Shown: positions 22,503-42,086 of the stretch, one piece after another
Numbering within the stretch: position 1 is the stretch's first letter
How the letters are laid out: each line of letters starts with the position of its first letter
Source: Escherichia coli
GTDB taxonomy: Bacteria; Pseudomonadota; Gammaproteobacteria; Enterobacterales; Enterobacteriaceae
Strand: one strand, 5' to 3'
Assembly: GCF_051903065.1 (NCBI RefSeq)
Contig: NZ_CP178438.1
Length of the DNA: 64,000 nt
Notes under the pieces: generated by a model
What the model saw: the letters and a program-made list of their open reading frames with translations, nothing else
Told to the model about the DNA's origin: nothing
Databases searched by the model: none
Position numbers and translations under genes: made by a program

Positions 22503-23366
<864 letters not shown>

Positions 23367-23387
23367 TCTTTTTGTTTGAAAAATAAA

Positions 23388-23417
23388 GTCTTAGCGTTCT
23401 GCGTTAAGACTTTTTTT
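23388..23417 (+). terminator. kdsA intrinsic terminator
   Basis: Hairpin GTCTTA..TAAGAC followed by T7. Confidence 0.5.
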
Positions 23418-23513
23418 ATGGGTGCCGGATACAAAAAGGGCCGCAGGCTGTTACCCCTGCGGCCGGTTTCGGGCGCATATTGCCATCACGGCAGCCTGAC
23501 GCCCGTTTTCATC

Positions 23514-23621
23514 TTACTTCCGGTTACGCCACCAGCTGACAATCGCTGCGGTAATAATTCCCGCCAGGATCGGTGCTGCCAGGTCGTGCCAGAAAATCAT
23601 GGCAAACTGCGCGAGCGTCAT
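23514..23621 (-). CDS. ldrA: type I toxin Ldr (35-aa membrane peptide), copy 1
   Basis: Minus-strand ATG..TAA translating MTLAQFAMIFWHDLAAPILAGIITAAIVSWWRNRK; followed on the minus strand by hairpin GGCCGCAGG..CCTGCGGCC plus U-run (23430-23464). Confidence 0.9.
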   Translation of the reverse strand: MTLAQFAMIFWHDLAAPILAGIITAAIVSWWRNRK

Positions 23622-23668
23622 ATAGCCGCCTTGTTGTAATGACAACATTTTGCGGCTATTCTTGAATT

Positions 23669-23736
23669 GTTGATGGTTCAAGATTAGCCCCCGTTCTGTT
23701 GTCAGGTTTTACCTCTCAACGTGCGGGGGTTTTCTC
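23669..23736 (+). ncRNA. rdlA: Rdl antisense RNA (antitoxin), copy 1; ends approximate
   Basis: Plus-strand promoter-like TTGTAA-17bp-TATTCT (23634-23662), then about 66 nt ending in hairpin GCCCCCG..CGGGGG plus TTTTCTCTTT (23687-23740). Lies in the ldr leader on the opposite strand. Placement inferred from sequence; not confirmed against a reference. Confidence 0.45.
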
Positions 23737-24049
23737 TTTCCAGCAACCAATGCCACCAGGGATAAAGCCCCCGCAACATTGCGCCTCACCGGATAACGCC
23801 GGCTTGGTGTGGATACTACGACTCAATTCATCTTCACTTCATCCCTGAAATGTTTGCAATGAAGAGTGCATTCCGGTTTTTCAACAGCTGTTACAGTCGT
23901 TTCATGAGTGCTCTGGATGATGCTTCCAGCTCGGGTTGCCAATATTTACTTGTGGAAGTGATAAAGACAAAAATGGCCGCAGGCTGTTACCCCTGCGGCC
24001 GGTTTCGGGCGCATATTGCCATCACGGCAGCCTGACGCCCGTTTTCACC

Positions 24050-24157
24050 TTACTTCCGGTTACGCCACCAGCTGACAATCGCTGCGGTAATAATTCCCGC
24101 CAGGATCGGTGCTGCCAGGTCGTGCCAGAAAATCATGGCAAACTGCGCGAGCGTCAT
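24050..24157 (-). CDS. ldrB: type I toxin Ldr, copy 2 (identical peptide to copy 1)
   Basis: Same 108-nt ORF 536 bp downstream of copy 1. Confidence 0.9.
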   Translation of the reverse strand: MTLAQFAMIFWHDLAAPILAGIITAAIVSWWRNRK

Positions 24158-24204
24158 ATAGCCGCCTTGTTGTAATGACAACATTTTGCGGCTATTCTTG
24201 AATT

Positions 24205-24272
24205 GTTGATGGTTCAAGATTAGCCCCCGTTCTGTTGTCAGGTTTTACCTCTCAACGTGCGGGGGTTTTCTC
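24205..24272 (+). ncRNA. rdlB: Rdl antisense RNA, copy 2; ends approximate
   Basis: Same promoter and terminator arrangement, shifted 536 bp. Confidence 0.45.
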
Positions 24273-24585
24273 TTTCCAGCAACCAATGCCACCAGGGATA
24301 AAGCCCCCGCAACATTGCGCCTCACCGGATAACGCCGGCTTGGTGTGGATACTACGACTCAATTCATCTTCACTTCATCCCTGAAATGTTTGCAATGAAG
24401 AGTGCATTCCGGTTTTTCAACAGCTGTTACAGTCGTTTCATGAGTGCTCTGGATGATGCTTCCAGCTCGGGTTGCCAATATTTACTTGTGGAAGTGATAA
24501 AGACAAAAATGGCCGCAGGCTGTTACCCCTGCGGCCGGTTTCGGGCGCATATTGCCATCACGGCAGCCTGACGCCCGTTTTCACC

Positions 24586-24693
24586 TTACTTCCGGTTACG
24601 CCACCAGCCGACAATCGCTGCGGTAATAATTCCCGCCAGGATCGGTGCCGCCAGGTCGTGCCAGAAAGTCATGGCAAACTGCGCGAGCGTCAT
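24586..24693 (-). CDS. ldrC: type I toxin Ldr, copy 3 (variant peptide)
   Basis: Translates MTLAQFAMTFWHDLAAPILAGIITAAIVGWWRNRK; differs from copies 1 and 2 at two residues (I9T, S29G). Confidence 0.9.
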   Translation of the reverse strand: MTLAQFAMTFWHDLAAPILAGIITAAIVGWWRNRK

Positions 24694-24740
24694 ATAGCCG
24701 CCTTGTTGTAATGACAACATTTTGCGGCTATTCTTGAAGT

Positions 24741-24808
24741 GTCTGGTTTCAAGATTAGCCCCCGTTTTGTTGTCAGGTTTTACCTCTCAACGTGCGGGGG
24801 TTTTCTCT
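24741..24808 (+). ncRNA. rdlC: Rdl antisense RNA, copy 3; ends approximate, 5' region diverged
   Basis: Terminator hairpin conserved (AGCCCCCG..CGGGGG + TTTTCTCTTT) but the upstream 20 bp differ from copies 1 and 2 (GAAGTGTCTGGTTTCAAG versus GAATTGTTGATGGTTCAAG). Confidence 0.4.
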
Positions 24809-25097
24809 TTCCAGCAACCAATGCCACCAGGGATAAAGCCCCCGCAACATTGCGCCTCACCGGATAACGCCGGCTTGGTGTGGATACTACGTCTCAATTC
24901 ATCTTCACTTCATCCCTGAAATGTTTGCAATAAAGAGTACATTCCGGCTTTTCAACAGCTGTTGCAGTGGTTTCGTGCAGGTTGTGGTACAGGCTCGCAA
25001 TTCTGATTAACGACCTGTCCAGGTAGTATGAAGAAATACAATAAGCAGGAATTTATATTATCTCCCCCGATTTCCGTCATCGGAGGAGATATAACTG

Positions 25098-26198
25098 TCA
25101 GGCAAATATCGTCATCAAATAGGCGGCAAACAGTGCCAGATGCGCTGCGCCATTGAGCACGTTAGTACGTCCGGTGGAGAAGGAGATATGGCACAGCACT
25201 AAAGAGGCCACCATCACCACCATTTCTGGCGCACCAAGTGCAAACTGCAATTCGTTACCCGTCATAAATGCAATTAGCGTGACGACAGGTACGGTAAGCG
25301 AAATTGTTGCTAACACTGAACCAAAGAACAGATTCATCGCGCGCTGGACCTGGTTGTTCAACACTGCTTTTAATGCACCTAAACCTTCCGGCGACAGAAT
25401 CAACAGTGCCACCAGGAAGCCAGTAAAGGCGACAGGGGCATTCATGCTGTCGAGCAAAGTCTCCAGCGGGCTGGCGTTCATTTTGGTGACTGCAATAACG
25501 GCAATCAGGTGGATAATCAACCAGATAGCATGCCACAGGCTGCTATGGGCAGACGGTTTACCGTGGTGCGGGTCGTCGTCATCACTGTCATCTTCGTGCT
25601 CGTAGACAAACAAACTTTGATGCGTTTTGGTCTGGATCAGCAAAAATACGCCATACATTGCCGCAGAAATTAATGCTACCAGTAACGCCTGACCGGTTGA
25701 AAAATTCGCCGCAGGCAGAGCCATTGGAAATACCAGTACGATTATCGCCAGGGGGAACAGCGCAATTAAATACTGCTTAATACCAAACAGATTCATATAT
25801 TGGGTGGCAAACTTACGACCGCCCAACAATAATGAAAAGCCGACCAGCCCACCGGTAACAATCATAATGATCGAATAGAGCGTATCACGCATTAGCGTTG
25901 GCGCGGCGTCGCCGGTTGCCATTAAAGCTGAAATCAAACTGACTTCAAGAATAACCACTGAAAGGCTAAGAATAAGCGAACCGTAAGGTTCTCCCAGGCG
26001 ATGGGCTAATACGTCCGCATGACGGACAACACTAAAGGCGCTACTTAAAATACCAATAAGCGCAAGAAGATTGATGGCAATGACCACTGGTAGTGTCTGG
26101 CTGCTTCCCCACAGGAACAGCACTACCAGCGCCAGAACCGGGAAAATAAGCGAAGTCTCCTTGTGGCGGGTTTTTACCGCCTCTTGAGCATTTGACAT
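25098..26198 (-). CDS. chaA: Na+/K+(Ca2+):H+ antiporter ChaA
   Basis: ORF 25098..26285; trimmed to MSNAQEAVKTRHKETSLIFPVLALVVLF (366 aa). Confidence 0.93.
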   Translation of the reverse strand: MSNAQEAVKTRHKETSLIFPVLALVVLFLWGSSQTLPVVIAINLLALIGILSSAFSVVRHADVLAHRLGEPYGSLILSLSVVILEVSLISALMATGDAAPTLMRDTLYSIIMIVTGGLVGFSLLLGGRKFATQYMNLFGIKQYLIALFPLAIIVLVFPMALPAANFSTGQALLVALISAAMYGVFLLIQTKTHQSLFVYEHEDDSDDDDPHHGKPSAHSSLWHAIWLIIHLIAVIAVTKMNASPLETLLDSMNAPVAFTGFLVALLILSPEGLGALKAVLNNQVQRAMNLFFGSVLATISLTVPVVTLIAFMTGNELQFALGAPEMVVMVASLVLCHISFSTGRTNVLNGAAHLALFAAYLMTIFA

Positions 26199-41712: not shown

Positions 41713-41882
41713 TGGTGGTGGGGGAAGGATTACTAGCGCTTCGCCCTTCGGGTCGTTGCCTGCGGCAACGCTTTCTCGCTGGCGCTCGAGTCGAACCTTA
41801 GTCGAAGCTTCTCATCCTTCCCCGCTTGGGCAGAATATTTAATTACGGATTCGTTTGAGAGTTCAGGGACTTTTGAAAGTGA
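41713..41882 (-). repeat. tyrT-operon 3' repeat unit (rtT/tpr region), ending in a 19-nt copy of the tRNA-Tyr 3' end
   Basis: TGGTGGTGGGGGAAGGATT at 41713-41731 repeats the tRNA 3' end about 170 bp downstream of tyrV; only about one unit is present here. Confidence 0.6.
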
Positions 41883-41967
<85 letters not shown>

Positions 41968-42001
41968 AGGGGTAATTCAAATTTCGAGGTAATGCTTGAG
42001 A

Positions 42002-42086
<85 letters not shown>

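Follow-up and report, generated by a model that had tools for sequence, protein, structure and literature searches.

Almost certainly (we put the probability near 0.95), the region between kdsA and chaA in the 64,000-nt stretch of Escherichia coli DNA analysed here, hereafter the window, carries the LDR array of the E. coli chromosome, three tandem ldr/rdl type I toxin-antitoxin modules. The array of E. coli K-12 was reportedly described by Kawano et al. in 2002. This triple repeat is already known, real but ordinary: among 5426 complete E. coli genomes, 5425 match the region and 5371 retain 80% or more of it, and because it is present in virtually all E. coli and annotated in K-12, the array matters little as a discovery.

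Three ldr/rdl units and their recent history

Three head-to-tail repeats occupy window positions 23431-24978, and the units were delimited from their direct-repeat families as follows.

22512-23366, plus strand, kdsA (RefSeq annotation of an identical genome)
23436-23971, LDR unit 1, 536 bp, identical to unit 2 at 534 of 536 bases (2 differences)
23972-24507, LDR unit 2, 536 bp, recombinant
24508-24978, LDR unit 3, ~471 bp, its homology with the other two units fading after ~24978
25098-26198, minus strand, chaA (RefSeq annotation of an identical genome)

Copies of one direct-repeat family lie at 23431, 23967 and 24503 and those of another at 23677, 24213 and 24748, giving spacings of 536, 536 and 535 bp across the families, in agreement with the ~536-bp periodicity proposed in a preliminary description of this DNA. 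Unit 3 is ~91% identical to the other two over 535 columns. The array is two full periods followed by a third unit of ~471 bp; the earlier claim of three ~536-bp repeats thus holds for units 1 and 2 and fails for unit 3, the end coordinate it gave (24978) was accurate, and its placement between kdsA and chaA stands, both flanking genes being annotated and the locus colinear with K-12. Tandem Repeats Finder returned no repeat for the region, a result that is uninformative on a 536-bp repeat because the longest period it considered was 500.

Each unit carries a toxin ORF on the minus strand and an rdl gene on the plus strand:

23514-23621, minus strand, ldr toxin ORF 1, 35 aa, I9/S29 variant, equal to K-12 LdrA/LdrC (RefSeq WP_000170955.1)
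24050-24157, minus strand, ldr toxin ORF 2, 35 aa, I9/S29 variant
24586-24693, minus strand, ldr toxin ORF 3, 35 aa, T9/G29 variant, equal to K-12 LdrB (RefSeq WP_000170963.1)
23669-23736, plus strand, rdl RNA 1 (Rfam RF01813, 83.6 bits at 23670-23735; K-12 rdlA maps here)
24205-24272, plus strand, rdl RNA 2 (RF01813, 83.6 bits at 24206-24271)
24741-24808, plus strand, rdl RNA 3 (RF01813, 91.8 bits at 24741-24806)

The ORF translations are MTLAQFAMIFWHDLAAPILAGIITAAIVSWWRNRK (twice) and MTLAQFAMTFWHDLAAPILAGIITAAIVGWWRNRK, exactly as first read from the DNA, and they match K-12 LdrA/C and LdrB residue for residue; three Ldr-family toxins are annotated by RefSeq in a genome that is 100% identical. 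The 35-residue peptide matches Pfam PF13940 Ldr_toxin over residues 1-35 of 35 (E 1.8e-24), the sole match in a Pfam scan that returned nothing for the Hok/Gef family, and it also matches LdrD in PDB 5LBJ (E 1.5e-10); the NCBIfam HMMs gave no match to the 35-aa peptides. Ldr would be a 35-residue single-pass inner-membrane peptide. LdrD and LdrA are toxic on over-expression and RdlD rescues, over-made Ldr causing collapse of ATP synthesis, nucleoid condensation and growth arrest (PMC4147584, PMC12643268, PMC8309996). We rejected the in-frame upstream ATG at 23648 as a candidate for the true ldr start, since LDR-D has ACG there and indels separate it from the annotated ATG.

All three plus-strand matches are full length and exceed the gathering score of the Rfam rdlD model (50), bearing out the antisense units of ~66 nt that had been proposed. 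Rdl is fully complementary to a stretch of the ldr mRNA leader that lies 48 to 115 nt ahead of the toxin start codon, thereby overlapping the 5′ leader and neither the ribosome-binding site nor the coding sequence. In unit 1 a gap of about 47-48 nt separates rdl (23669-23736) from the ldr ATG (23621), units 2 and 3 share this layout, and the proposal that rdl is antisense to the toxin leader is sound. The predicted fold of rdl RNA 1 (−27.7 kcal/mol, z −4.8) has a 16-nt single-stranded 5′ tail followed by a long terminator stem-loop, and the 5′ tail of rdl 3 differs from that of copies 1 and 2.

Against E. coli K-12 the region shows 98.7% nucleotide identity, and the six annotated features ldrA, rdlA, ldrB, rdlB, ldrC and rdlC all map base for base onto the window, as an alignment suggested beforehand would require. 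With Pfam Ldr_toxin, Rfam rdlD and the K-12 mapping all in agreement on the LDR arrangement, the sequence-only reading had placed the units and the small RNAs with an error of no more than one or two bases.

K-12 LDR-A/B/C and the window units share the kdsA-chaA locus, unit length, gene order and strands, but the order of peptide variants is I/S, I/S, T/G in the window and I/S, T/G, I/S in K-12, and K-12 rdlA has a 5′ tail unlike those of rdl 1 and 2. Unit 2 is a hybrid, its left ~77 bp resembling unit 3 and the remainder unit 1, with the crossover in the interval 24049-24072; for this reason the three window genes are not one-to-one orthologues of K-12 ldrA/B/C. With unit 2 removed, the window is identical to a two-copy genome at 1914 of 1915 positions, pointing to a two-copy array that underwent one recent unequal crossover. 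E. coli genomes carry 1 to 3 copies at the locus, and some arrays are interrupted by IS elements. On these comparisons, copy number and order change by unequal crossover between units, and the names ldrA/B/C should therefore not be carried over by position from one strain to another.

The experimentally studied member of the family, LDR-D (ldrD/rdlD), has the same architecture as the window units, with a nearly identical leader (about 80 nt of it invariant), 3′UTR element and terminator and the same predicted fold-back structure. It differs in being a single copy elsewhere, between bcsG and yhjV, in its peptide, only 57% identical to window Ldr, and in the sequence upstream of the −10 box, which is unrelated. 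The ibs/sib and zor/orz systems likewise combine small hydrophobic toxins with cis-encoded antisense RNAs and are duplicated within one intergenic region (PMC2887945). Their toxin and RNA families are nevertheless unrelated to ldr/rdl, and Sib RNAs span the whole ibs ORF.

Putative transcripts and the predicted fold of the ldr mRNA

Transcript ends and promoters were inferred from sequence and K-12 annotation; in K-12 the ldrD/rdlD transcripts have been demonstrated (PMC7373196). The signals considered are these.

23432-23805, minus strand, putative ldr mRNA 1 (~374 nt; ends placed from homology limits and terminator)
23968-24341 and 24504-24876, minus strand, putative ldr mRNAs 2 and 3, equivalents of ldr mRNA 1
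23464-23439, 24000-23975 and 24536-24511, minus strand, terminators (GC hairpin plus U-run; terminator scan)
23711-23730, 24247-24266 and 24782-24801, plus strand, terminators (hairpin plus U-run; terminator scan)
23634-23662, plus strand, putative rdl promoter 1 (−35 TTGTAA at 23634-23639, 17-nt spacer, −10 TATTCT at 23657-23662)
24170-24198 and 24706-24734, plus strand, putative rdl promoters 2 and 3, equivalents of rdl promoter 1
23470-23505, minus strand, conserved 3′UTR element 1 (predicted in MFE folds to pair with the ldr SD/AUG region and the 5′ leader)
24006-24041 and 24542-24577, minus strand, conserved 3′UTR elements 2 and 3, equivalents of element 1

Homology with LDR-D and 28 other loci begins at the −10 box and stops at the terminator U-run, and the limits of the ldr mRNA are placed there for that reason. 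The putative start of ldr mRNA 1 falls ~7 nt past the −10 box TAGTAT (23818-23813), its end being the U-run. The terminator scan returned 11 sites (2.4 expected), among them a minus-strand site in each of the three units, in accordance with the hairpin plus U-run that the preliminary description assigned to every toxin ORF. A consensus promoter scan with a cut-off of 9/12 gave no sigma-70 site; the rdl promoter is missing from it because it scores 8/12. The +1 of rdl 1, read from the sequence, would be the G at 23669, and the −35 box of ldr is weak.

We compared 30 ldr loci from six genera (Escherichia, Kluyvera, Pseudocitrobacter, Citrobacter, Klebsiella and Salmonella). The 35-codon ORF is kept in the 30 loci; one Pseudocitrobacter copy has a premature stop. 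An rdlD match of 60-87 bits was found in 7 of the 7 loci of this set that were scanned. Across genera, the alignments show leader and 3′UTR to be better conserved than the coding sequence.

The MFE structure of unit 1 is kept in 87.9% of cells over the 30 sequences (36-48% in slid controls). Its predicted helices 25-29:352-356, 172-184:339-351, 194-200:332-338 and 204-212:321-329 (alignment columns) are kept in 87-100% of cells, the last three, which join the SD/AUG region to the 3′UTR, being 87-90% paired. Pair 212:321 is compensated in 8 sequences, and covariation is limited to a few pairs, the paired columns of the key helices being mostly invariant or changed on one side. RNAalifold predicts a different, local hairpin for the anti-SD, in which CG and UA pairs covary (19 to 10). 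Partition-function folds of the 30 mRNAs, computed at full length and 3′-truncated and with the Rdl target masked, predict a paired SD (P 0.78-0.91) under all four conditions, that is, with and without the mask and with and without the 3′UTR. From these models, the toxin ribosome-binding site is predicted to be locked in conserved 3′UTR pairings in the 30 ldr mRNAs, and a 5′-3′ fold-back is predicted to mask the translation start of the full-length mRNA.

Candidate leader ORFs and the proposed hok/mok/sok-like model

Two kinds of leader ORF enter the models of translational control:

23622-23681, minus strand, candidate ldrX (mok-like) UUG leader ORF of unit 1, starting inside the Rdl target
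23702-23779, minus strand, 25-codon upstream leader ORF of unit 1, with ATG start and SD-like GGUGAGG
24238-24315 and 24773-24850, minus strand, upstream leader ORFs of units 2 and 3, equivalents of the 25-codon ORF

Six nt upstream of the UUG lies a GGGGG SD-like motif. In units 1 and 2 the UUG ORF is in frame with ldr (in unit 1 as a 55-codon ORF, 23514-23681), and the unit-3 version (24690-24752) terminates at a UGA that shares bases with the ldr AUG, as an AUGA stop-start overlap; given this difference, the copies could differ in how they are coupled and in how their own Rdl 5′ tails repress them. The UUG, 58-63 nt upstream of ldr, is followed by a stop-free frame up to the ldr AUG in all 25 non-Klebsiella loci, whichever frame it occupies, and it is absent from the five Klebsiella oxytoca-group loci among the 30. 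Since two of the three frames are open across this conserved segment anyway (18 of 50 non-UUG control frames are stop-free), openness supports the candidate leader ORF weakly.

The hok/mok/sok systems, both the plasmid R1 one and chromosomal hokC/mokC/sokC, resemble ldr in their long structured leader, in an antisense RNA lying opposite that leader and not the toxin ribosome-binding site, in a predicted 5′-3′ fold-back pairing and, if the candidate UUG ORF is accepted, in an ORF running from the antisense target into the start of the toxin gene. The Rfam model RF01794 describes the sense leader of hok up to the hok AUG, and every ldr leader aligns with it end to end (positions 1-157), finishing exactly at the ldr AUG, with Rdl at the same model positions as SokC. 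Scores of the ldr leaders run from 20 to 47 bits (best E 6.6e-8, in K. oxytoca), below the gathering score of 59: 27-30.5 bits in the window and at most 47.1 in K. oxytoca. For hokC itself the score is 118 bits. The toxin families differ, Ldr/Fst with 35 aa in ldr and Hok/Gef with about 50 aa in hok, and the ldr leader ORF starts at UUG and is mostly in frame with the toxin, whereas mok overlaps its toxin out of frame. Unlike hok, ldr is not known to undergo 3′ processing. Kawano 2012 (RNA Biol 9:1520) is said to have found the regulatory elements of ldr and hok very similar save for the toxin-coding region.

Fold-back, hok-leader alignment and UUG ORF fit the published hok/mok/sok-like model, the Ldr/Rdl mechanism itself being called unproven in reviews (PMC4147584, PMC8309996). 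In each unit, a structured minus-strand mRNA of ~374 nt would encode Ldr and the opposite strand would give the 66-nt Rdl. According to the model, the ldr SD and AUG would be permanently masked by the conserved 3′UTR element or the local anti-SD hairpin, and Ldr would therefore be made only when ribosomes translating the leader ORF, a candidate for which starts at the UUG inside the Rdl target, reach the ldr start and open the mask. The single-stranded 5′ tail of Rdl would pair with the hairpin loop carrying the UUG, which may both block initiation on the leader ORF and form an RNase III substrate. In its published description, ldrX extends over the initiation region of ldr, and RdlD blocks it (PMC8167048).

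It is rather unlikely, though the strongest of the alternatives, that Rdl mainly targets the ldr mRNA for cleavage by RNase III and degradation instead of blocking leader-ORF translation. Full complementarity of Rdl to 66 nt of the leader would suit such a role, as would an RNase III-dependent dsRNA peak of ~21 nt in the rdlD/ldrD overlap, among the most abundant in E. coli, and a shorter ldrD fragment seen only in rnc mutants (PMC7373196). These mutants, however, show only slight rises in the level and half-life of ldrD and rdlD (PMC7373196), reviews class Ldr/Rdl under 'inhibit protein synthesis' (PMC4147584), and a cut in the leader, at least 48 nt ahead of the AUG, would by itself leave the ldr coding region in place.

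Less probable again is that the coupling ORF is the 25-codon ATG ORF (23779-23702), whose translation would open the leader until Rdl blocked its elongation. All 30 sequences retain its start codon (ATG in 27, GTG in 3) behind an invariant GGUGAGG 4-5 nt upstream, and in E. coli its 3′ half overlaps the Rdl target. Yet the ORF varies in length from 11 to 34 codons, with three Klebsiella versions stopping before the Rdl target; it stops 56-132 nt short of the ldr AUG and hence does not reach into the ldr initiation region, and its variable columns show non-synonymous changes and one frameshift. The ATG is moreover part of a conserved hairpin, hence its conservation can be explained without translation, and the published description of ldrX (PMC8167048) suits the UUG ORF better. 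With a conserved start but neither stop position nor peptide conserved across the alignments, the 25-codon ORF does not seem to be favoured as the coupling ORF.

A purely structural switch, in which Rdl binding frees the anti-SD AUAGCCGC to sequester the ldr SD with no leader ORF involved, appears slightly less plausible still. Two alternative pairings of the anti-SD are conserved, one with GGCUA in the Rdl target (131-135:162-166) and the other with the SD (161-168:195-202), and masking the Rdl target moves the predicted SD partner from the 3′UTR to the anti-SD (0.19 to 0.43). Since the SD is predicted to be paired equally with or without mask and with or without 3′UTR (0.78-0.91), the folds predict no 'on' state that Rdl could turn off, and with the SD paired in 4 of 4 conditions over 30 mRNAs we rejected the switch as an on/off mechanism.

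That the repeats are decaying remnants with some or no copies functional is very improbable: the copy number of 1 to 3, the IS-interrupted arrays and the Pseudocitrobacter premature stop would fit decay, but every unit is intact in its toxin ORF, both terminators, rdl promoter boxes and Rfam/Pfam matches, 5425 of the 5426 E. coli genomes match the region (5371 retain 80% or more of it), and across genera the coding sequence is less constrained than the non-coding parts.

To return to the hok/mok/sok-like model, the 30 loci in six genera lend it comparative support and identify specific bases to mutate. We tentatively raise the possibility, more doubtful than probable, that ldr/rdl is a chimera in which an Fst/Ldr toxin ORF sits within a regulatory scaffold that shares its ancestry with that of hok/mok/sok; if that were true, the leaders of the Klebsiella oxytoca group, which reach 47 bits against the hok-leader model, would be intermediates.

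Anatomy and identity of the array

Three head-to-tail copies of one unit were read within 23200-25300 of the window. A repeat finder returned two overlapping families (copies at 23431/23967/24503 and 23677/24213/24748) spaced by 536, 536 and 535 bp, which bears out the direct repeats of ~536 bp proposed in the preliminary description. By global alignment, units 1 (23436-23971) and 2 (23972-24507) match at all but 2 of 536 positions, and unit 3 aligns well with both up to ~24978 and is degenerate beyond, the array end at 24978 having been placed accurately. Tandem Repeats Finder reported nothing for the array because its maximum period of 500 lies below the 536-bp unit.

Features of the array (window positions)
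22512-23366, plus strand: kdsA, array flank (RefSeq annotation)
23514-23621, minus strand: ldr toxin ORF 1, 35 codons (ORF translation)
24050-24157, minus strand: ldr toxin ORF 2, 35 codons (ORF translation)
24586-24693, minus strand: ldr toxin ORF 3, 35 codons (ORF translation)
23670-23735, plus strand: rdl RNA 1, Rfam rdlD family, full length, 83.6 bits
24206-24271, plus strand: rdl RNA 2, Rfam rdlD family, full length, 83.6 bits
24741-24806, plus strand: rdl RNA 3, Rfam rdlD family, full length, 91.8 bits
23619-23772, 24155-24308 and 24691-24843, minus strand: sub-threshold matches to Rfam RF01794
25098-26198, minus strand: chaA, array flank (RefSeq annotation)

The three hydrophobic minus-strand ORFs encode exactly the peptides noted beforehand, and a terminator scan placed the expected 9-bp GC-rich hairpin and U-run downstream of each. 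The proposed plus-strand units of ~66 nt correspond to the three rdlD matches (gathering score 50 bits) and to a second hairpin and U-run per unit on that strand; kdsA and chaA flank the array as claimed. Each rdl RNA is predicted to fold into a 16-nt single-stranded 5′ tail and a long terminator stem-loop (z ~-4.8). Elsewhere in the window, an RtT RNA element (118.9 bits, 41713-42086, minus strand) adjoins two tRNA genes; it belongs to the tyrT-tyrV-rtT locus expected in E. coli.

Pfam Ldr_toxin covers the toxin peptide from end to end (E 1.8e-24), and the peptide also matches LdrD, solved by NMR (PDB 5LBJ). Megablast matched the array region in 5,425 of 5,426 complete E. coli genomes, two of them 100% identical across it, and RefSeq labels three genes in the kdsA-chaA interval of an identical genome as "type I toxin-antitoxin system toxin Ldr family protein". 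K-12 MG1655 is colinear with the region at 98.7% identity, its ldrA, rdlA, ldrB, rdlB, ldrC and rdlC mapping base for base onto the window ORFs and RNAs. The array shows every Ldr/Rdl family sequence feature tested and is a member of that family. It is near certain that this locus is the known E. coli LDR array, which Kawano et al. reportedly described in 2002. The finding itself is therefore already known, with nothing new in it, and its crossover history and the structural comparison are modest additions; reviews cover the array (PMC4147584; PMC2887945).

Array history and copy number

The peptide variants I9/S29 (I/S) and T9/G29 (T/G) are ordered I/S, I/S, T/G in the window versus I/S, T/G, I/S in K-12, and window units 2 and 3 align with K-12 units A and B at 99.0%, better than in the colinear pairing. 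The window copies do not correspond one to one, as orthologues, to K-12 ldrA/B/C. Many of the closest megablast genomes carry only two copies, and the window without unit 2 is identical to the two-copy E. coli genome 14EC033 save for one difference (1,914/1,915 positions). At 23974 and 24048 unit 2 itself agrees with unit 3, and from 24073 on with unit 1, its left ~77 bp being unit-3-like and the exchange interval 24049-24072. From this hybrid and the near-perfect two-copy match we infer a two-copy ancestor, in which a single recent unequal crossover between the units produced the triple array.

Copy number between kdsA and chaA is polymorphic: when all E. coli hits were ranked and 60 records taken at even spacing, three copies were present in 26, two in 18 and one in 15. 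Two sampled arrays are broken by IS elements (IS200C or ISApl1). Records labelled plasmid account for 33 matching places; they also contain kdsA and chaA and are probably mislabelled chromosomal pieces.

Conserved core and distribution

Alignment with LDR-D (ldrD/rdlD), the single-copy K-12 module at another locus, shows homology from a -10-like box (TAGTAT, 23818-23813; TAGAAT in LDR-D) to the terminator U-run. These limits suggest that the conserved core is the ldr transcription unit, which would measure ~374 nt between its putative ends if it starts near 23805. Surveying one genome per species (GTDB) gave 30 ldr loci in Escherichia, Kluyvera, Pseudocitrobacter, Citrobacter, the Klebsiella oxytoca group and Salmonella arizonae/diarizonae. 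The 35-codon ORF is intact in almost all, and an rdlD match (60-87 bits) was present in all seven loci scanned. An in-frame ATG lying 27 nt before the annotated ldr start was rejected for its lack of conservation, in support of the 35-codon ORF.

Leader and 3′UTR are more conserved than the coding sequence, whose second codon is ACG in 30/30 sequences with no synonymous variation (columns 203-208 of the ldr mRNA alignment; window 23621-23616 and equivalents); the invariant codon preserves a UGA that overlaps the AUG (AUGA) as well as a GACGC:GCGUC pairing with the 3′UTR.

The Pseudocitrobacter vendiensis ldr (L009:1501-1605) has W31 changed to a premature stop with leader and 3′UTR intact, and may be a recently inactivated copy. 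Klebsiella oxytoca carries two tandem ldr/rdl units spaced by ~478 bp (L023:865-1026, 1343-1503) and Kluyvera genomosp. 3 at least three dispersed ldr loci (L008, L010, L013), so both kinds of amplification also occur outside Escherichia. A 503-bp contig labelled Bacillus sp. (L026, coverage 0.66) codes for an LdrD-like peptide that differs little from the E. coli one; the contig is almost certainly enterobacterial contamination of a Bacillus assembly.

Leader structure, leader ORFs and likeness to hok/mok/sok

In the minimum free energy (MFE) folds of both unit 1 and LDR-D, the ldr SD/AUG region is base-paired to a conserved 3′UTR element, and a 5′-proximal GGCGC to a 3′-proximal GCGCC. Across 30 sequences this structure is paired in 87.9% of cells, versus 36-48% for slid controls; the three start-masking helices reach 87-90%, and pair 212:321 (alignment columns) is compensated in 8/30. 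RNAalifold favours a different, local anti-SD hairpin whose inner stem covaries (CG in 19, UA in 10). The observed substitutions fit either structure, and the SD is predicted to be buried in both. Partition-function folds with the Rdl target masked left SD pairing at 0.78-0.91 in all conditions, its partner alone shifting; a simple structural on/off switch by Rdl is rejected, predicted SD pairing being the same with and without the mask. Such constant pairing suggests that the SD would need active opening, for example by leader-ORF translation.

One candidate start, UUG 23681-23679 in unit 1, lies 6 nt downstream of GGGGG within the hairpin that the Rdl 5′ tail targets. The ORF opened by this UUG runs without a stop to the ldr AUG in 25/25 non-Klebsiella sequences, in frame with ldr in 18, ending at AUGA in four (including unit 3) and 20 nt into ldr in three. 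This openness is weakened as evidence because the conserved segment leaves two of the three frames open in any case and all five Klebsiella loci lack the UUG. A second ORF (ATG 23779, 25 codons) keeps its start, also inside a conserved hairpin, in 30/30 sequences; it spans 11-34 codons and never reaches the ldr start, except in two sequences where it reads on into ldr.

The rdl 5′ tails differ, being GUUGAUGGUUCAAG in copies 1 and 2 and GUCUGGUUUCAAG in copy 3 (23669-23684 versus 24741-24755), and no leader segment varies more across genera than the matching hairpin loop. By analogy with Sib/Ibs, for which this was shown, tail differences may lead each Rdl to prefer its own mRNA.

Rfam RF01794, although named "sok antitoxin", effectively models the hok leader up to the hok AUG and not the Sok strand: hokC scores 118 bits on its sense strand (L035:502-654, minus). 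The model aligns full length with every tested ldr leader, ending exactly at the ldr AUG, at 20-47 bits, all below its gathering score of 59. The best match (E 6.6e-8) is that of K. oxytoca, in whose leader the first stem is extended, as in hok, by an 8-nt insertion. Rdl and SokC sit at the same model positions, and the mokC AUG aligns 2 nt from the candidate UUG start in the ldr leader. Regulation of ldr appears like that of hok/sok, with antisense Rdl at sok's place opposite the leader, but the window array is not a member, since its toxin family differs (Pfam) and its leader falls below the Rfam threshold. Kawano is said to have described the regulatory elements of the two families as similar in 2012.

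LdrD and LdrA are toxic membrane peptides, and LdrD is counteracted by RdlD (PMC4147584; PMC12643268; PMC8309996); RNase III-dependent dsRNA forms at the ldrD/rdlD overlap (PMC7373196). The leading, unproven proposal holds that a mok-like ORF, ldrX, is translationally coupled to ldr and blocked by Rdl (PMC8167048). The ldr SD/AUG would be kept buried by 3′UTR pairing or the local anti-SD hairpin, translation of the mok-like leader ORF would open it, and Rdl, by blocking that translation, would repress ldr. With moderate confidence, structure, hok-likeness and leader ORFs together best fit this published hok/mok/sok-like model.
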